From the NCBI GenBank assembly GCA_964487615.1, contig CAZARM010000005.1, positions 182 to 64,181 of the forward strand: a stretch of 64,000 bases of DNA, in the 5' to 3' direction. The first letter of the stretch is position 1; every line of letters begins with the position of its first letter. Source of the stretch: an uncultured Candidatus Saccharibacteria bacterium (lineage in GTDB: Bacteria > Patescibacteriota > Saccharimonadia > Saccharimonadales > CAZARM01). The position numbers were made by a program, and so were the translations under genes. Under the pieces are notes generated by a model that saw nothing but the letters and a program-made list of their open reading frames with translations, was not told the origin of the DNA and made no database searches. Below are positions 6,908 to 51,186 of the stretch, one piece after another.

Positions 6908-7596
6908 AAACGGTTGTTACCAAGGGTATAGTCTTGGCCCGCACTAACTTCCAGGAAGCTGACCGCATCGTCACATTACTAACGCCAGACCAGGGGAAGG
7001 TTAGAGTACTGGCCAAAGGTGTGCGTAAACCCAAGTCCAAGCTAGCTGGCGGCATAGAACTATTCAGTGTCAGCGACATTACCTACTTGCCTGGACGCGG
7101 AGAGTTGGCCACTCTTATATCCTCGCGGGTAATGATCCACTATGGCAATATTGTGAAAGATATCAACCGCACCATGTACGGCTACGAGCAGCTCAAACGG
7201 TTCAATAAACTAACCGAGGACGAAGTAGAACCAGATTATTTTGAGCTTCTGCAGGCGGGGCTGGATAGCTTAAACAACTCAGAAATTTCATTTGACCTCA
7301 CTGATTTGTGGTTGAGCATGCAATTGCTCAGACTGACTGGGCAGGCGCCAAATTTACGTACCGACATAACCAATACTAAGCTGACAGAAGGCCAGAATTA
7401 CGTCTTTAGTTTTGATGACATGGCTTTTGCAGCTGCCCCCGACGGTGGGTCCAATGCAAAAGTCATCAAAGTCCTGCGCTTAGCTCATTCTGCTGCTTCA
7501 CCCGGTGTACTACTACAGGTCACGGGAGCAGACAAGTTGATTGGTGAAGCAGTGCAACTAGCTAGATCAATGGCAAAACTCTACCTCCCGACATAA
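6904..7596 (+). CDS. recO: DNA repair protein RecO
   Basis: The N-terminal OB region GIVLARTNFQEADRIVTLLTPDQGKVRVLAKGVRKPKSKLAG is typical of RecO. Confidence 0.9.
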   Translation: MKTVVTKGIVLARTNFQEADRIVTLLTPDQGKVRVLAKGVRKPKSKLAGGIELFSVSDITYLPGRGELATLISSRVMIHYGNIVKDINRTMYGYEQLKRFNKLTEDEVEPDYFELLQAGLDSLNNSEISFDLTDLWLSMQLLRLTGQAPNLRTDITNTKLTEGQNYVFSFDDMAFAAAPDGGSNAKVIKVLRLAHSAASPGVLLQVTGADKLIGEAVQLARSMAKLYLPT

Positions 7597-14239: not shown

Positions 14240-15313
14240 TTAATCATCTATGACGGCGTAAGACTTAGCGCCCTTGTCGGGAATGTTTACTCTTATTCCT
14301 GGATGCGCCGCCAGTATTGCCGCGAACCTACTACGACGGTTACTGTCGCTTGCATCAATTCCCATAGCTCTTAGTAATTGCTTTACTGTCATTGGTACAT
14401 CAGACTTAGTTAGTATCACAAAACTCCTATCAACTAATTCCGGGTAATGCAGTTGCCGGTCCCCGAGGCTCTCATTGCAATGACCTGTTCGCTGAAGAAG
14501 ATAACGAATATCATCTGGTTGTTCTACGTCTGGTTGCTTTAATCGCTCAAGTCGTTTGTTGGCATTAGCGTGTCCTTCGGCATAAAAAGAGGGGTCAAGC
14601 CTTACAGTTCGAGTGACTATCTCACCTAAAGCGTCTACAGCGTCCGATGCCTGCGGATTAAATGTGAATATACGCTCACGCTTCCCCCGAACACGTGACT
14701 CCATAACTAGCTTGCCACTGACTAATCTATTGAGGGGGTGTTCAATTCTTTTTCGTCTGCCTCCATCGATGGCATTTATTTCTTTTGTGAGGTCCTTATT
14801 AGTAAAACGCATGAGTTCTCGGGCCAAAAATAGAGCCCGTAAACTAAGTATGATGCCCGGCGTTTCGGTCGATTCGGCTGATGGCAGCTTTGCTCCGCCA
14901 AAAAATTTTCCAAAGCGGGCATTATGGCTCACACCCCAACCCAATAACTGTTCAGCGGCTGGTCGATAGATCGCTACACCCACATCGCTAAGTGCGTAGA
15001 GGTTTGGCGTACGAGTGAAAGCACTTCCATGGCCAGGTGTCATATCAAATACGCCGTAGGCGCGGGTTGCCAATAGATCGACTGCTTCCGGATAGGTGGC
15101 GTCTGATGGAGTATATAAAGGATTGCCATTTTGTAGCTTGAGAACACGGGTGTTTATACCAGCTGCGTCTAGTTTTTCGTCCGGCTCAAACATGTCAACT
15201 AACGTGGCCTTTACCTCTGTAGACAAGGCATTAAAAACCATCGCCGTCTGGTATTCGCTCAGCCTCTCCATACCTTCGGATCTGTCTAAACCGATGTCGT
15301 TTAAAGCACTCAT
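14240..15313 (-). CDS. Hypothetical protein, possibly multi-winged-helix
   Basis: 357-aa ORF on the strand opposite its neighbours. No confidently recognisable domain. Confidence 0.5.
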   Translation of the reverse strand: MSALNDIGLDRSEGMERLSEYQTAMVFNALSTEVKATLVDMFEPDEKLDAAGINTRVLKLQNGNPLYTPSDATYPEAVDLLATRAYGVFDMTPGHGSAFTRTPNLYALSDVGVAIYRPAAEQLLGWGVSHNARFGKFFGGAKLPSAESTETPGIILSLRALFLARELMRFTNKDLTKEINAIDGGRRKRIEHPLNRLVSGKLVMESRVRGKRERIFTFNPQASDAVDALGEIVTRTVRLDPSFYAEGHANANKRLERLKQPDVEQPDDIRYLLQRTGHCNESLGDRQLHYPELVDRSFVILTKSDVPMTVKQLLRAMGIDASDSNRRSRFAAILAAHPGIRVNIPDKGAKSYAVIDD

Positions 15314-41114: not shown

Positions 41115-42440
41115 TCAAGTGGCTTTTACTTTTGGTAGTTCCTGCCAGTTGGTGGTGTAGAGGGGGCTGCGGAGGTTGTAGATGGGTCTCCAGGCTTCGC
41201 CCAGGCCTTCGGCGGCTAAACGGATGGTACGGCGGCCGAAGCGGTCATTGATGTGGTCCAGGGCTTGCATGCGCCGAGAGGCTTTGCCGTGAGCAGGAAC
41301 GTCCACGCAGCCGAACAGATCAGTTTGTAACACTGCTGCTGGCACGAAATCATACAGCAGTACGCCTGCCCGGTGATATTTGACCGCTGGATTGTACAAC
41401 TGGCTAAATAAATCGTTCATGGTCTGGGCAATCAAGCCGGTATCGGCCGTTGGTACGTCAAACACTACTTCCTTGCTCCAGCGTCGGTAGCCAGGCTTAT
41501 GTTTATTAGTCGTTACAAATATACCGGCTCGACGCGTTAACTGCTGGCTTTCCCTTAGGCGGTGACTGGCCTGGGAGGTGAAGGTGGCCAGAGCGGCCTC
41601 TACGGCGTGGGCGTTGCCGGTATCGTGGCCAAAGGTGCGGGTGCGGGCAATGCTCTTGCGGACTTTGCCCTCTACCTCCAGGGCGTGACAGCTTACGCCG
41701 TTGAGCTCAGCCACTAGCTGACGACCCAGGATACCCATCAAGCTCTGGGCGCGCCGGGGCGAAAGCTGGCAAAGTTGCTCAGCTGTCGAAATTCCCTCAC
41801 CCCGCAATCTTGGCGCCAGCCTCCACCCAATCCCCCACACCTCCTCCACTGGCGTAGTCTCCAGCCACATGTGAGAGGTCCGTCCTCTCACACTAGCCGT
41901 GAGTAGTGGTGTTTGTGAGAGGTCCGTCCTCTCACAAAAAGAGAGGACGCCGTCTAGTTCGGGGTCTTTTTTGGCCCTGTCGGAAGCTAGCTTAGCCAGG
42001 GTTTTGGTGGGCGCGATGCCAATTGACACTGGCATACCTATCCACTTGAATATCCGGCGCTGGACCTCGCGCCCCCAAGCGGTGTAATCAGTAATCGGTA
42101 GCTCCGAGAGATCCAAGAAGCACTCATCTACCGAATAAACTTCAATTCTAGGCGTAATGGTCGTCAGCAGTTCGATAATCCGGCGCGATATGTCGCCGTA
42201 CAGCTCGAAGTTAGCGCTAAACTGCACTACCCCGTAGTCTTTGAATAATTGCCGGTACTTGAAAGCCGGCGCCGCCATGCGTATACCCAAGGCCTTAGCC
42301 TCATTGGACCGAGCCACGGCGCAACCATCATTACTAGATAACACCACAACGGGTTGGCCTTCCAGGTCAGGCCGAAAGACCCTCTCGCAGGATACAAAAA
42401 AGTTGTTGCAGTCAATCAGAGCAAACAGTGGTTTCTTCAT
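41115..42440 (-). CDS. umuC: Y-family translesion DNA polymerase, UmuC-like
   Basis: FALIDCNNFFVSCERVFRPDLEGQPVVVLSSNDGCAVARSNEAKALGI is near-collinear with the E. coli UmuC N-terminus. EEVWGIG motif present. Confidence 0.9.
   Translation of the reverse strand: MKKPLFALIDCNNFFVSCERVFRPDLEGQPVVVLSSNDGCAVARSNEAKALGIRMAAPAFKYRQLFKDYGVVQFSANFELYGDISRRIIELLTTITPRIEVYSVDECFLDLSELPITDYTAWGREVQRRIFKWIGMPVSIGIAPTKTLAKLASDRAKKDPELDGVLSFCERTDLSQTPLLTASVRGRTSHMWLETTPVEEVWGIGWRLAPRLRGEGISTAEQLCQLSPRRAQSLMGILGRQLVAELNGVSCHALEVEGKVRKSIARTRTFGHDTGNAHAVEAALATFTSQASHRLRESQQLTRRAGIFVTTNKHKPGYRRWSKEVVFDVPTADTGLIAQTMNDLFSQLYNPAVKYHRAGVLLYDFVPAAVLQTDLFGCVDVPAHGKASRRMQALDHINDRFGRRTIRLAAEGLGEAWRPIYNLRSPLYTTNWQELPKVKAT
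41870..41892. repeat. 23-bp palindromic element TGTGAGAGGTCCGTCCTCTCACA, copy 1 (inside umuC)
   Basis: 9-bp arms TGTGAGAGG/CCTCTCACA with a 5-nt centre. Identical to the copies at 41914 and 50018. Confidence 0.9.
41914..41936. repeat. 23-bp palindromic element, copy 2 (inside umuC)
   Basis: Exact 23/23 match, 21 bp from copy 1. Read in a different codon phase from copy 1. Confidence 0.9.
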
Positions 42441-42524: not shown

Positions 42525-42884
42525 TCAGGCTGCTTCATTTGGCGCGTCCTGGCTGACATATTGGTGGATGGCAGTAGTCACGACACCCCAGCACTGACTG
42601 CCACTAGGCAAGCTGGCCCTGTGCCCCAGGACAAAGCTGTCACCTTCCCACCAGATGATCAAATCGTTTTTGCGGGGCGTCAGCACGCGGTCGATAATCA
42701 AGACGTCATTATGGAAAATGCCAAACTCCCGCCAGGTGTTGCCTTCTATGCGCATGTAGAACGTGCCAATGGAGTGTTGCACCAGGTATTTGTTGAGGTC
42801 AATCCCCTGCAAAGTGGTGTCTGATCCAGGATTTGGAAAGCCAGCGTGTACCGAGACTCCCTGGGGGCTGCTATATACAGTCAT
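42525..42884 (-). CDS. umuD: UmuD-like S24 peptidase-fold protein with substituted catalytic residues
   Basis: VHAGFPNPGSD aligns to UmuD VQCGFPSPAADY. GNTW replaces the GDSM nucleophile motif. No Lys at the FTVKK position. Lies directly upstream of umuC. Confidence 0.7.
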   Translation of the reverse strand: MTVYSSPQGVSVHAGFPNPGSDTTLQGIDLNKYLVQHSIGTFYMRIEGNTWREFGIFHNDVLIIDRVLTPRKNDLIIWWEGDSFVLGHRASLPSGSQCWGVVTTAIHQYVSQDAPNEAA

Positions 42885-46776: not shown

Positions 46777-49356
46777 ATGTTTTTCCGAAAAATGCAAAGT
46801 ACCGCTGCTGTTGATGACGGAGCAGTCTTGCTCCTACAAATCCCCCGCACCAACGAGAAAAAAGAGCTGGCCGCCGAGCAAATGTTTGCTAGCCTGCATG
46901 GCTTGCTGACCACCGCTGACAAGACGTTTTTTAAGGCGCCGGTGCACGAGCGCATTAGTTTTGAAATTATTGTTCAATCTAAGCGCATCTGTTTCTATGT
47001 CTGGGTCCCCCAACACCTCAAAAGCTTCGTAGAAGAGCAGATCTATGCCCAGTACCCCACGGTTCACATCTCTGAGGTTGAAGATTATACCGATAACAAG
47101 GCCCAAGCCTATCCGACTAAGCTCATCGGCGAGCTCAAGCTAATCGGCAACGATGCCCTGCCGATAAAAACCTTCCCCAGCTTTGAAGTCGACCCTTTGG
47201 CAGCCATCACCGCCACTCTGGCAAAATTTGAGGATGATGAAGAAGCTTGGCTGCAACTAGTTATGCGCCCAGCGCCTAGCGATTGGCACAAAAAGAGTGA
47301 GAAATACATCGGTAGTATCCGCAACAAAACCGTTGGGGGTAGCAGCAGCTTCGGAGTGGCCACGGCTCTATGGGCACCTCCCGAAGGCAAGAGTGGTGGT
47401 AGCACGGCAGCTAAACTCGCGGAGTACGAAACCGCTCGGGCCAGTGGTGCCGAGAGCAAAGCACAAAAGCTGGCTTACGAAGTGAGCTTGCGCATTGTCT
47501 ACTTGGGCAATGCTTCGCCGGCACATGCCCGGATGCGCATCCAGGCCATTACGGCCAGTTTTAAACAATTCAACACTACCTATCTCAACGGCTTCACGCA
47601 GGATTACTTAACAGAAGATATACGCTTCTTGGATTTGTACCGTAATCGAGAGTTCAAAGGCCGCGGCTTTATGTGCAACATCGAGGAAGTCGCCAGCGTC
47701 TACCACCTGCCGCACACCAATGTCGAGACGCCTAACATCCTGTGGGCGAATGCCAAAACAGCCGAACCGCCAGCCAATGTTCCGTTAGTTTCAGAAGCTA
47801 ACCGGGATGTTATTAGCCCGATTGCGGTGACTAATTTCCGGGGGCACAACACCATGTTTGGACTGCCCCGCGAAGATCGTGGTCGGCACTTATATATCAT
47901 TGGTCAAACCGGCACCGGTAAATCTGGGTTGTTGGAGCTGATGACCATCTCGGATATTTATAGTCCCTACGGTTTTGCCGTCATAGACCCACACGGTGAT
48001 TACGCCCTCAATATCCTGCGACGCATTCCGCCAGAGCGCGCCAAAGACGTCTTGTACTTTAACCCCGCGGACACGGACTTCCCCATTGCCTTTAACCCCA
48101 TGGAAGTTTTAGACGAAAAGCTCAAGACCCACACCGCTTCAGAGCTGATTGGCGTATTAAAACGTATGTTTGAATCCTGGGGTCCTAGACTGGAATACAT
48201 CCTGCGCTACTCGCTGTTGGCACTGCTTGACTACCCCGATGCCACGATGCTGGACATTACCCGAATCCTAACGGACAAAAAGTTCCGTGAAGACGTCCTA
48301 ACCTACGTCCAGGATCCGGTGGTTAGAAACTTCTGGCAGATTGAGTTTGCTAGCTGGAATGACAAGTTTGCCGCCGAAGCTGTAGCGCCAGTTCTGAACA
48401 AAGTCGGGGCCTTCACCGCTAACCCGACGGTGCGTAATATCATTGGCCAGCCCAAGAGCACTTTTAACATCCGTCAGATTATGGATGAGCGCAAGATCTT
48501 GATTGTTAACCTGTCACGCGGACTAATAGGCGAAGACAACGCCGCTTTGCTAGGCGCCCTGATGGTTACCAAGATCCAGATGGCAGCCATGAGCCGGGCC
48601 GACCAAGACCAAGAAGCTCGGGTGCCCTTCTATCTCTACGTCGACGAATTCCAAAACTTTGCCACCGATTCATTTGCCACAATCCTGTCGGAGGCCCGTA
48701 AATACGCTCTCAACCTGACGGTCGCCAACCAGTACATCGCCCAGATGATGGACACCGTTAAGGACGCTGTCTTCGGTAACGTCGGCTCGATCCTGTCCTT
48801 CCGTACTAGCGCTGACGATGCCCGCACCATGATGAAGTATTTCGAGCCGCAGTTTACCGATTTTGACATCGTCCACATGCACAACCGCCACTTTGCGTTA
48901 TCGATGACCATCGAGGGCGAGAAAGCCCAAGCCTTCTCGGCGACCACATTGAATCTACCAGAAGCCGGACCAGATAATAGCGCCGAGATCATTGCTCACA
49001 GCCGGGAAAAATACGCTGTGCCACGCGCTGGCATCGAAGAATTCATGAATAAACGCTACGTGACACCTAGTAAGAACGCCACCTCCGGCCAAACCCCACG
49101 GGCGCATTATGACAAACCTAGGGAGCAGAGGCCAGATAATAGAGTTCAGAGTTTAGAGGACGGAGATCAGGCAGCTGCATTGGCGCCGAAGGAGCCAGCC
49201 ACACCACAAGGAATGGCCAAGAGTATTCTGAACCTGAGTGGTGCAGAAAAGCCCAAGCGCAAACGGACTCGCACCCGTCGCAAGAAAAACCCCGAAGCAC
49301 CAACCCAAACTCCCGTTACCCAAAAGGACGATGAGACGGTACTAAAACTGCACTAA
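46777..49356 (+). CDS. FtsK/HerA-superfamily P-loop ATPase, TraD/VirD4-coupling-protein-like, with large N-terminal domain of unknown function
   Basis: Walker A IIGQTGTGKSGL, then IDPHGDY, Walker B YLYVDEFQNF, and a basic C-terminal tail KPKRKRTRTRRKK. Confidence 0.75.
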   Translation: MFFRKMQSTAAVDDGAVLLLQIPRTNEKKELAAEQMFASLHGLLTTADKTFFKAPVHERISFEIIVQSKRICFYVWVPQHLKSFVEEQIYAQYPTVHISEVEDYTDNKAQAYPTKLIGELKLIGNDALPIKTFPSFEVDPLAAITATLAKFEDDEEAWLQLVMRPAPSDWHKKSEKYIGSIRNKTVGGSSSFGVATALWAPPEGKSGGSTAAKLAEYETARASGAESKAQKLAYEVSLRIVYLGNASPAHARMRIQAITASFKQFNTTYLNGFTQDYLTEDIRFLDLYRNREFKGRGFMCNIEEVASVYHLPHTNVETPNILWANAKTAEPPANVPLVSEANRDVISPIAVTNFRGHNTMFGLPREDRGRHLYIIGQTGTGKSGLLELMTISDIYSPYGFAVIDPHGDYALNILRRIPPERAKDVLYFNPADTDFPIAFNPMEVLDEKLKTHTASELIGVLKRMFESWGPRLEYILRYSLLALLDYPDATMLDITRILTDKKFREDVLTYVQDPVVRNFWQIEFASWNDKFAAEAVAPVLNKVGAFTANPTVRNIIGQPKSTFNIRQIMDERKILIVNLSRGLIGEDNAALLGALMVTKIQMAAMSRADQDQEARVPFYLYVDEFQNFATDSFATILSEARKYALNLTVANQYIAQMMDTVKDAVFGNVGSILSFRTSADDARTMMKYFEPQFTDFDIVHMHNRHFALSMTIEGEKAQAFSATTLNLPEAGPDNSAEIIAHSREKYAVPRAGIEEFMNKRYVTPSKNATSGQTPRAHYDKPREQRPDNRVQSLEDGDQAAALAPKEPATPQGMAKSILNLSGAEKPKRKRTRTRRKKNPEAPTQTPVTQKDDETVLKLH

Positions 49357-49782: not shown

Positions 49783-51186
49783 TTATAGAGCTTCTATTTG
49801 TCGATCGAGGCGGCGTAGGCTAAGTTCTTTGCCTAAAACCGCCAAAGTTTCGGCTAAGCCGGGACTAGAGGGGCTCTGGGTGGTGGCTATGCGGATTAGG
49901 CTGAATAGGACGGCTGGTTTTTGGCCAGTTTTTTCTAGCAATTGGTTTAACCGCCCCTGTAAATCGTCCAGTGTAAAATCGCTCTGCTCCAAGCTATCCC
50001 TGGCCGTACAGAGCCAATGTGAGAGGTCCGTCCTCTCACATTTCCCGAGTTGTTTGTGATTGGTAATCAGTTCAGGATTCACAGGGAGATCAGCAAAGAA
50101 AAACTTGGTGAGATTTGCGAGCTCACCGAAATATTTCAGACGTTCCTGAACCAGGGCAAGGACAGTTTTCTTGTACGCTTCGCTGGCATCCTTGGCCTCC
50201 GCGGGCCAATAGCTCTCGCAGCGTTTATATAGATCGTCTAGGGGTAATCCACGGATAAAGTGGCCGTTGACCCATAGTAGCCGTTGCTCGTCAAAACGAG
50301 CACCGCTCTTCTGTACTTTATCTAGACTGAATTTTTGAATTAGCTCATTGGTAGTAAAGACCTCTTGGGTGGTGCCATCGTTCCAACCTAGCGTGGCTAT
50401 AAAGCTAACCAGGGCCTCTGGCAAGTAGCCGTCACGGATATAATCCAGTACGTCCTTGGCGCCGTCGCGCTTGGACAGCTTCTTGTGCCCGTCTGGACCC
50501 AGAATATGGGGCATGGTGGCCATAATAGGCGGTTTCAGCTCCAATGCCTCGTACAGATTAAGGTAGTTCGGGGTGCTAGCTAAGAACTCCTGACCACGGA
50601 TGACATGGCTAATCTTCATGTCAGCGTCGTCGACGATGTGGGAAAAGTTATATGTCGGGTAGCCATCAGATTTGATTAGCACAAAGTCGTCTACCCCTTC
50701 AGGTCCGGTAGAAATCTCGCCCATGACTTCGTCGTGCCAGGTGTAGGCTTTGGGCTCCGACTTAAAGCGTAGCGGCTGACTACCATCCCAGGCCGGCAGA
50801 TCTTGGGGTCGATGATTGCGGTACAGAAAAGGCTTCTTACTTGCCACGGCTTCGTCCCTAAATTTTTGAACTTCCTGTGTGCTGTATGGATCAGCATAAG
50901 CACGGCCACTGTCGATTAATTTATGAGCCCATGTTTTATATAGACTGAGGCGTTCGCTTTGGCGTATCGGTCCTTCGTCAGGCTTGAGGCCTAGGGCATT
51001 TAGGCTGTCGACTATGTGCTGCCCGGCGCCTTCTACCTCCCGTTTTTGGTCAGTGTCTTCCAGACGCAAGATAAAAACACCGTTGTTTTGCCTAGCTACC
51101 AGCCATGCGAATAATGCTGTGCGAATACCACCGACGTGTAGCAATCCAGTTGGTGATGGAGCAAAGCGGGTTCGAACGATGTTCAT
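49783..51186 (-). CDS. gltX: Glutamate--tRNA ligase
   Basis: RTRFAPSPTGLLHVGGIRTALF (HIGH region) and KLSKRDG (KMSKS). Carries one copy of the 23-bp palindrome in the C-terminal domain. Confidence 0.96.
   Translation of the reverse strand: MNIVRTRFAPSPTGLLHVGGIRTALFAWLVARQNNGVFILRLEDTDQKREVEGAGQHIVDSLNALGLKPDEGPIRQSERLSLYKTWAHKLIDSGRAYADPYSTQEVQKFRDEAVASKKPFLYRNHRPQDLPAWDGSQPLRFKSEPKAYTWHDEVMGEISTGPEGVDDFVLIKSDGYPTYNFSHIVDDADMKISHVIRGQEFLASTPNYLNLYEALELKPPIMATMPHILGPDGHKKLSKRDGAKDVLDYIRDGYLPEALVSFIATLGWNDGTTQEVFTTNELIQKFSLDKVQKSGARFDEQRLLWVNGHFIRGLPLDDLYKRCESYWPAEAKDASEAYKKTVLALVQERLKYFGELANLTKFFFADLPVNPELITNHKQLGKCERTDLSHWLCTARDSLEQSDFTLDDLQGRLNQLLEKTGQKPAVLFSLIRIATTQSPSSPGLAETLAVLGKELSLRRLDRQIEAL
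50018..50040. repeat. 23-bp palindromic element, copy 3 (inside gltX)
   Basis: Exact TGTGAGAGGTCCGTCCTCTCACA, translated as CERTDLSH as in umuC copy 2. Confidence 0.9.

Follow-up and report, generated by a model that had tools for sequence, protein, structure and literature searches.

A single perfect 23-bp palindrome is found in two unrelated genes, gltX and umuC, within a 64,000-nucleotide stretch of DNA from an uncultured Candidatus Saccharibacteria bacterium (hereafter, the window). This raises the question of what kind of element the palindrome is and of how protein-coding sequence accommodates it. The original prediction, made on the basis of sequence alone, was that of a short mobile or recombinogenic element inserted in frame, with an mRNA hairpin shared by the two genes as the alternative. 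As detailed below, the palindrome is very probably a REP-type repeat, namely, a member of a hairpin family that is recognized and mobilized by a RAYT, a REP-associated tyrosine (Y1, HUH) transposase, and that resides in a subset of Candidatus Saccharibacteria. The features of the window considered here are the following:

49783–51186, - strand: gltX, encoding glutamate-tRNA ligase (467 aa); intact, and host to the probable REP
50018–50040, + strand: REP-type palindrome in gltX, read on the - strand as CERTDLSH (GltX residues 383–390)
41115–42440, - strand: gene encoding an umuC-type Y-family DNA polymerase (441 aa); intact, and host to the probable REP doublet
42525–42884, - strand: ORF encoding an umuD-like S24 peptidase, upstream of umuC
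41870–41936, + strand: probable REP doublet in umuC (67 bp), comprising two palindromes of the same loop orientation separated by a 21-bp spacer (41893–41913)
41870–41892, + strand: copy 1 in umuC, in the second stop-free phase, read as VRGRTSH
41914–41936, + strand: copy 2 in umuC, read as CERTDLSQ, the gene-proximal half of the doublet
41941–41949, + strand: GAGAGGACG, a 9-nt match to the arm and loop of the palindrome that overlaps the conserved GVLS codons of umuC

The sequence at 50018–50040, TGTGAGAGGTCCGTCCTCTCACA, consists of perfect 9-bp arms and a 5-nt loop reading TCCGT on the + strand, with the stem of the gltX copy being extendable to 11 bp (spanning 50016–50042). Exactly three sites in the window carry TGTGAGAGGTCCGTCCTCTCACA, namely, the site in gltX and those at 41870–41892 and 41914–41936 in umuC, where zero are expected (100 shuffles). 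No additional copies with up to three mismatches were detected in the 64-kb window. The gltX palindrome is, therefore, an exact copy of the umuC element, as originally claimed. In all three copies the loop reads TCCGT on the + strand, and gltX and umuC are both - strand genes, such that the predicted sharing of orientation relative to the gene was likewise borne out. The same can be said of the reading phase, which in gltX is that of umuC copy 2 (CERTDLSH vs. CERTDLSQ), with copy 1 occupying the other open phase (VRGRTSH). Because the third phase of the palindrome contains TGA, regardless of strand, only two phases are tolerable inside genes. Indeed, the stop-free readings are CERxxLS[H/Q] and VRGxxSH, and intragenic copies are always found in these two frames. 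The single arm TGTGAGAGG is present only within full palindromes, and arms alone are not over-represented. As single-stranded DNA, the gltX hairpin is predicted to fold with an energy of -11 kcal/mol (z = -7.5 relative to shuffled sequences). As mRNA, the corresponding values are -19 kcal/mol for a single copy and -40 kcal/mol for the umuC doublet. No known RNA family was matched at the palindrome, with tRNAs and 5S rRNA being the only Rfam matches. Chance and assembly artefact were both rejected as explanations, given that zero copies are expected and that the motif appears in many independent assemblies.

The effect of the palindrome on the encoded proteins was considered by comparison with orthologues. 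GltX comprises tRNA-synt_1c and Anticodon_2 domains, the latter assigned to residues 319–464 by Pfam, such that residues 383–390, encoded by the palindrome, lie inside Anticodon_2. Forty close orthologues (72–78% identity) aligned without a gap at the CERTDLSH site, presenting eight different residues instead, typically L-S/D-K-x-E-L-K-x. A multiple alignment of 53 sequences, including 45 distant representatives, also contained no gap at this position, revealing the segment to be family-wide and merely variable. As the segment is ancestral and no gap is seen, the gltX palindrome replaces 24 ancestral nucleotides (eight codons) with zero gain in length. As such, the notion of in-frame insertion failed for gltX, where eight residues were replaced and where no 8-aa insertion could be seen in comparison to either close or distant orthologues, but held for umuC, where a doublet is found and the protein is 13 aa longer. 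A Saccharibacteria-specific 8-aa insertion in GltX, raised by pairwise alignments with GluRS structures in the PDB (4–11 extra residues), was overruled by the 53-sequence alignment.

The palindrome is carried by only 4–5 of some 120 gltX orthologues. The same codons are occupied in at least five lineages, which fail to group together by identity and each of which has its own dialect of the repeat, and identity ranks offered no support for palindrome-bearing GltX proteins forming a single clade. Nor was any prior DNA likeness of the gltX site to the repeat found in orthologues lacking it (mean rank 0.53). Moreover, 80 metagenomic gltX neighborhoods, totaling 910 kb, contained no copies of the palindrome, and the databases contained no close allele of this gltX free of the repeat, with the nearest orthologue being 78% identical and the metagenome scan returning sequences no more than 71% identical. 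The best guess as to how the gltX copy came to replace exactly 24 nucleotides is exchange of an older REP copy for the present one or templated conversion.

In the case of UmuC, which contains IMS, IMS_C, and DUF4113 domains, the doublet and its 21-bp spacer fill a variable linker that follows the catalytic IMS domain, yielding a net gain of 13 aa relative to the closest orthologues (441 vs. ~428 aa). A palindrome is found in this linker in approximately 11 of 120 orthologues, a count that includes a second palindrome family. The 9-nt sequence GAGAGGACG at 41941–41949 pairs with the 3' arm of umuC copy 2 to generate an alternative hairpin (41925–41949), and may represent target microhomology or a chance match. 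The possibility that the umuC palindromes correspond to the SOS box of umuDC was dismissed, since the site is intragenic and the motif is found genome-wide.

To define the distribution of the palindrome, a database comprising one genome per species (185,579 species) was scanned with the query TGTGAGAGG-N5-CCTCTCACA, in which the loop was left free. This yielded 70 loci, of which some 53 were in Saccharibacteria, Saccharimonadales, or Patescibacteria metagenome-assembled genomes (MAGs), several with multiple copies. The MAG GH52, labeled as Elusimicrobia, was counted with these non-scattered loci. The remaining 17 or so were lone matches in unrelated taxa, roughly the level expected by chance for 18 fixed bases. 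Rather than being unique to the three sites in the window and shared by all relatives, the motif is thus dispersed across many Saccharibacteria and absent from most orthologues of its host genes. No match to the palindrome was found in phage contigs. Within a given genome the loop is constant, whereas loops differ between genomes (TCCGT/ACGGA, ACTGT/ACAGT, TCTCA/TGAGA, TTCGA, and CTCAG/CTGAG), and the palindrome occurs in both orientations among the Saccharibacteria loci. Stem variants are compensatory (GAGAGG/CCTCTC, GAAAGG/CCTTTC, and GATAGG/CCTATC), which points to pairing as the conserved property, and the apparent universality of the stem in the scan is partly a matter of ascertainment, as the stem was fixed in the query. 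Among motif-ascertained Saccharibacteria loci, 18 of 52 copies (35%) are contained in ORFs of 150 aa or more, a class that accounts for 75% of the bases; in GH52, this was so for none of 12 copies. Given this depletion from long ORFs, the palindrome is for the most part extragenic, although the share of copies inside genes is unusually large.

Additional traits of mobile hairpins were noted in these genomes. Doublets of 88 bp, with a 42-bp spacer and 65 bp from start to start, are found in five assemblies (L013, L016, L015, L072, and L050), with the remaining doublets being spaced 44–107 bp apart. Two of the 65-bp-spaced doublets occupy unrelated intergenic sites in one genome, and their spacers are, as judged by eye, about 75% alike. 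One palindrome is nested within the loop of another in L076 and L039, and a single arm is tandemly duplicated in L013, L009, and L037. In the 71 kb sampled from the MAG JBBRZI01, 14 perfect and three near-perfect copies were distributed over 10 loci. More generally, near-perfect copies are scarce and usually lie 44–107 bp from a perfect one. In JBBRZI01, the palindrome is also contained within a composite intergenic repeat of some 170 nt. A CRISPR mini-array was considered and rejected, as the loops of a doublet are not uniformly oriented and the spacers show partial conservation.

In eight genomes, the palindrome adjoins a gene encoding a protein of about 209 aa (L040, L031, L018, L075, L076, L077, L023, and GH52 [L022/L067]). 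Three of these genomes (L075, L076, and L077) were obtained via the protein, one being a complete genome of 1.21 Mb. Six of the eight have a palindrome on either side of the gene, with one side being seen in L023 and GH52, and inverted doublets flank the gene on both sides in L040 and L075. In L040, L031, and L018, the bracketed ORF was called at 216–220 aa, with the true length being about 209 aa. The protein scored 37–44 bits against the Pfam family Y1_Tnp (IS200-like), thus passing the cut-off of 23. Its best and sole NCBIfam match was the REP-associated tyrosine transposase model NF047646, against which it scored 40–42 bits and thus fell short of the equivalog cut-off of 80. Alignment of 36 sequences revealed no variation in either the HUH motif (CLMPNHFHLL) or the tyrosine motif (SRYIHxNP). 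At the sequence level, no match to this Saccharibacteria RAYT was found in the PDB. When an AlphaFold (AF2) model (pLDDT 81) served as query, the top PDB fold match was 4er8, the E. coli RAYT in complex with a REP hairpin, followed by ISDra2 and IS608 TnpA. Homologue searches returned thousands of Saccharibacteria relatives which, where named at all, were named only as "transposase."

The position of the RAYT gene is conserved, with the order folD-murI-murD (-)/RAYT (+)/response regulator (-) being shared by L040, L031, L018, L075, L076, and L077. The flanking palindromes have a common architecture, with each genome presenting its own dialect. In L040, the 23-mer flanking the transposase gene is TGTGAGAGGTCCGTCCTCTCACA, i.e., that of the window. 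The flanking palindromes are ATGTGAAAGG-TTAGA-CCTCGCACAT in L075, TGTGATAGG-TTAAA-CCTATCACA in L076, and TGTGAAAGG-ATAAA-CCTTTCACA in L077. L076 encodes a second RAYT paralogue with a different flanking palindrome of its own, GCTACAAGG-ATAAT-CCTTGTAGC. The RAYT start codon overlaps the 3' arm of the palindrome (…CACATGCC…). Classical RAYT-linked REPs are marked by a GTAG tag, but no conserved GTAG/CGTC tag was detected at the foot of the hairpin, where A is found at position -1 in 50% of cases (folded flank logo, 75 copies). GTAG adjoins a few copies (L009, L035, and L077), and the second-family arm CCTTGTAGC does contain GTAG. As the 64-kb window itself contains no RAYT gene, the cognate enzyme of this genome is assigned by reference to relatives. 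It is the combination of a mainly extragenic hairpin repeat, its occurrence as singlets and fixed-spacing doublets, a resident Y1 gene with the repeat on either side, and a repeat sequence that varies in step with the enzyme that argues for the palindrome being a REP. The earlier suggestion of a mobile or recombinogenic short element thus gains support from a REP-type repeat that flanks a cognate Y1 (RAYT-like) gene in related genomes.

The closest known counterpart is the REP/REPIN-RAYT system of Escherichia coli, Pseudomonas, and Stenotrophomonas, to which 4er8 belongs. Both involve a dispersed and mostly extragenic hairpin repeat of 20–40 bp found as singlets and as doublets of fixed spacing, an HUH/Tyr Y1 gene, usually one per genome, that is conserved in position and bracketed by the repeat, and a repeat sequence that co-varies with the transposase lineage. 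In both, a minority of copies lies inside replication, repair, and tRNA-related genes (PMC3733652). The system described here differs in its Saccharibacteria (CPR) host, in the absence of a conserved GTAG tag, and in a short, perfect stem of 9–11 bp. It also differs in that some 35% of copies are intragenic, with single intragenic copies being length-neutral and recurring at the same codons across deep lineages. Furthermore, the Saccharibacteria RAYT is divergent, with a sub-equivalog NCBIfam score, a length of about 209 aa, and a C-terminal helical extension.

The transposase fold and catalytic motifs are also shared with the IS200/IS605 family (IS608 and ISDra2), in which the transposase recognizes subterminal single-stranded hairpins, a property to which the Saccharibacteria RAYT is likened by its predicted fold. 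However, IS200/IS605 elements are autonomous and multi-copy, carry their own tnpA between two unlike hairpin ends, and insert beside a short target, whereas in Saccharibacteria the gene for the enzyme holds a fixed chromosomal position, with repetition being confined to the 23-bp hairpin. The Rickettsia RPEs offer another parallel, being palindromic repeats found in frame within genes for functional proteins, in surface segments tolerant of them, in a reduced genome. RPE-1, at approximately 100–150 bp, is longer and adds length, whereas the unit here is 23 bp, is linked to a RAYT, and can be length-neutral. We know of no cognate transposase for the Rickettsia RPEs. The shorter RPE-4 and RPE-6 have been classed as CGTC REPs without a dedicated transposase (Di Nocera et al., 2013, PMC3733652). 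The same study, which also mentions the in-frame Rickettsia RPEs, described intragenic REPs in several species, many in replication and repair genes, including those encoding error-prone polymerases, and in genes for tRNA synthetases and tRNA-modifying enzymes (Di Nocera et al., 2013, PMC3733652). Both the type of element reported here and its presence within repair and tRNA genes are, accordingly, already known from the literature, while a literature search for REP or RAYT in Saccharibacteria found no relevant report.

The identifiable host genes of intragenic copies conform to this pattern, with 12 of 12 encoding nucleic acid enzymes, namely, GltX and UmuC in the window and, elsewhere, ArgRS (twice), RsmA (twice), PolA, DnaG, Fpg, TsaD, Dus, and a methylase-like protein. 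The single intragenic copies in GltX, ArgRS (81 residues vs. 84 model positions), and one RsmA are length-neutral. At residue 59 of argS, the palindrome is found in two genomes of deeply diverged lineages, each with its own dialect, and the same codons of rsmA are similarly occupied in two genomes, again each with its own dialect.

How such copies might arise can be proposed by analogy. The RAYT would bind the hairpin folded in single-stranded DNA, probably at replication forks, and would cut and rejoin at the foot of the hairpin, as do E. coli TnpA-REP and IS200/IS605 TnpA, thereby spreading or refreshing REP copies. Such binding and cleavage are putative, the basis being the likeness of the modeled fold to 4er8 and the conserved catalytic residues. 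Copies landing in genes would persist only if read in one of the two stop-free phases and situated in a variable surface segment, such as that in the anticodon-binding domain of GltX, where eight codons are replaced, or the linker that follows the IMS domain of UmuC, with the addition of 13 aa. Two observations count against simple transposition. Insertion by a transposase should add some 23–25 nt, yet the gltX and argS copies and one rsmA copy are length-neutral, and occupancy of the same codons in deeply diverged lineages is unlike random transposition. Cut-and-paste insertion alone predicts neither. Both could arise through exchange of an old REP for one of current type, through templated conversion, or through a strong preference for the site coupled with selection on length. 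Replacement of one REP by another or templated conversion would also account for each genome presenting its own dialect at one and the same site. There is some small chance that intragenic REPs are long-lived residents at fixed codons of genes for DNA and RNA enzymes, kept perfect and updated in dialect by the RAYT through length-neutral exchange or conversion. The genes named in this proposal are gltX, argS, rsmA, umuC, polA, dnaG, fpg, tsaD, and dus.

Explanations in which transposition plays no part were weighed against the same data. Were the palindrome a chromosomal site bound by a protein dimer, whether an architectural or segregation site of the parS, Noc, or SlmA type or a global operator, and were it maintained by positional selection, the perfect symmetry of its arms, its low to moderate density (three copies in 64 kb), and its presence at the same codons of gltX, umuC, argS, and rsmA in several diverged lineages would be understandable, as would length neutrality. 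Indeed, parS sites sit inside conserved genes without indels, as do copies of the palindrome. Still, a site under positional selection fits poorly with a palindrome present in so few gltX and umuC orthologues and missing from all 80 metagenomic gltX neighborhoods. Likewise, the loop is preserved within a genome, in both orientations, while doublets, nesting, and duplicated arms are characteristic of hairpins that move, and the only protein consistently linked to the palindrome is the Y1 transposase. A binding site is, therefore, considered very unlikely. Even less credence is given to a DNA uptake signal, shaped by transformation-biased drive in competent Saccharibacteria, despite such motifs being made by substitution, without change in length. 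The length-neutral copies of gltX, argS, and rsmA, situated in variable protein segments, would be in line with this, and the lineage dialects recall those in which the DUS of Neisseriaceae come. DUS and USS, too, are short, over-represented motifs found within genes without indels. However, the Saccharibacteria unit is an entire palindrome and not a 9–12-mer, the arm TGTGAGAGG on its own is not over-represented, and a graded spectrum of near matches is missing, with none at one to three mismatches in the window and few elsewhere. Density is, moreover, far below that of known uptake sequences, and an uptake signal would not be expected to associate with a Y1 transposase.

Selection at the RNA level, with the palindrome serving in cis as a terminator, mRNA stabilizer, or RNase target, would be consistent with the stable folds of single copies and of the doublet, and with most copies being extragenic. 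Elsewhere, REPs have known roles as RNA elements (PMC3733652), and the overlap of the RAYT start codon with the 3' arm suggests translational control of the RAYT gene. At the same time, the appearance of an identical 23-mer in unrelated genes and in intergenic regions, in both orientations, calls for a copying process beyond selection for structure. Only a few copies are followed by a T-run, and no Rfam family was matched. An mRNA hairpin specific to gltX and umuC, as had been offered as the alternative at the outset, thus found no support in a palindrome that is mostly extragenic and oriented both ways, and a cis-acting RNA hairpin in general is judged highly improbable as the identity of the element. 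An RNA-level effect may, at best, be a secondary role of a REP.

Identification of the palindrome as a probable REP would place a REP/RAYT system in Saccharibacteria, an episymbiotic CPR lineage of tiny genomes. For those annotating such genomes, 8-aa CERxxLS[H/Q] or VRGxxSH segments in conserved proteins are to be expected and are not errors. The excess of replication, repair, and tRNA genes among the hosts of intragenic REPs, published but unexplained, is reproduced in a distant phylum, with length-neutral replacement and recurrence at the same codons in lineage-specific dialects being the added features. If the doubtful proposal that intragenic REPs are long-term residents were true, this would amount to transposase-driven, site-preserving overwriting of coding sequence, and would imply a host function for REP/RAYT tied to replication, repair, and translation genes. 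With length-neutral replacement and same-codon recurrence combined, the REPs of Saccharibacteria offer a compact setting in which to test the means by which RAYTs move or renew their repeats.

Within the Saccharibacteria beyond the window, every identified gene bearing an intragenic copy of the palindrome encodes a DNA or RNA enzyme, namely, PolA, ArgRS (twice), DnaG, Fpg, RsmA (twice), TsaD, Dus, and a methylase-like protein (10 loci: L026, L056, L004, L070, L047, L032, L050, L049, L065, and L014). This host-gene bias resembles that reported for other REPs (Di Nocera et al., 2013; PMC3733652). In ArgRS, the palindrome was found at identical codons in two distant genomes:

L056, 637-2301, minus strand: ArgRS gene, palindrome at residue 59
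L004, 187-1827, minus strand: ArgRS gene, palindrome at residue 59

The loops differ between the two genomes, with the site being read as H-VRGETSH-M and H-VRGQSSH-I. The same recurrence was seen in RsmA (L032 and L050), where one gene carries a single copy and the other a doublet.

Two further ORFs of the window lie between gltX and umuC:

42525-42884, minus strand: 119-aa ORF upstream of umuC
46777-49356, plus strand: 859-aa ATPase-like ORF between gltX and the DUF3048 gene

In syntenic loci, the position of the 119-aa ORF is taken by a gene that matches Peptidase_S24 (LexA/UmuD-type); accordingly, this ORF and umuC look like a putative umuDC operon. The L073 counterpart of the 859-aa ORF presents DUF8128, DUF87, and TrwB-type matches. 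L072 and L074 are syntenic apart from lacking this ORF, which makes it a variable insertion within the conserved gltX…umuDC block. Separately, the codons for the conserved GVLS residues of umuC (GGC GTC CTC TCT on the gene strand) comprise a 9-nt REP match able to pair with the neighboring REP arm (alternative hairpin at window 41925-41949), which may reflect target-site microhomology or coincidence.

A second Y1 transposase paralogue in L076 is bracketed by its own palindrome, GCTACAAGG-ATAAT-CCTTGTAGC:

14437-14459: palindrome
14462-15091, minus strand: second Y1 transposase gene
15094-15116: palindrome

A related palindrome, ACTGTACAAG…CTTGTACAGT, lies in the umuC linker of L071 (peptide VQGRSLY) and, as judged from peptides, in that of several further orthologues.

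In MAG JBBRZI01, the palindrome is joined by two additional conserved hairpins, ATCCTGAA…TTCAGGAT and CCGGG…CCCGG, in an intergenic composite repeat of ~170 nt that matched no Rfam family and that forms short tandem arrays in L037 and L009:

L048, 7230-7520: composite repeat
L064, 3530-3820: composite repeat
L035, 1860-2120: composite repeat
L037, 5400-5700: composite repeat
L009, 60-380: composite repeat

A whole palindrome sits within the loop of another copy, as a REP in a REP, in L076 (10615-10665) and L039 (about 7390-7450). Single palindrome arms are tandemly duplicated in L013 (6211), L009 (163), and L037.

Finally, the AT-rich MAG JAQICQ01 ("Elusimicrobia GH52"; L011, L022, L027, L041, L043, L045, L052, L053, L059, L067, and L068) contains at least 12 copies with the same stem and a CTCAG/CTGAG loop, extragenic without exception, with RAYT homologues (47-54% identity) adjoining these copies. 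Either this bin wrongly bears the Elusimicrobia label or the REP/RAYT pair has crossed phyla.
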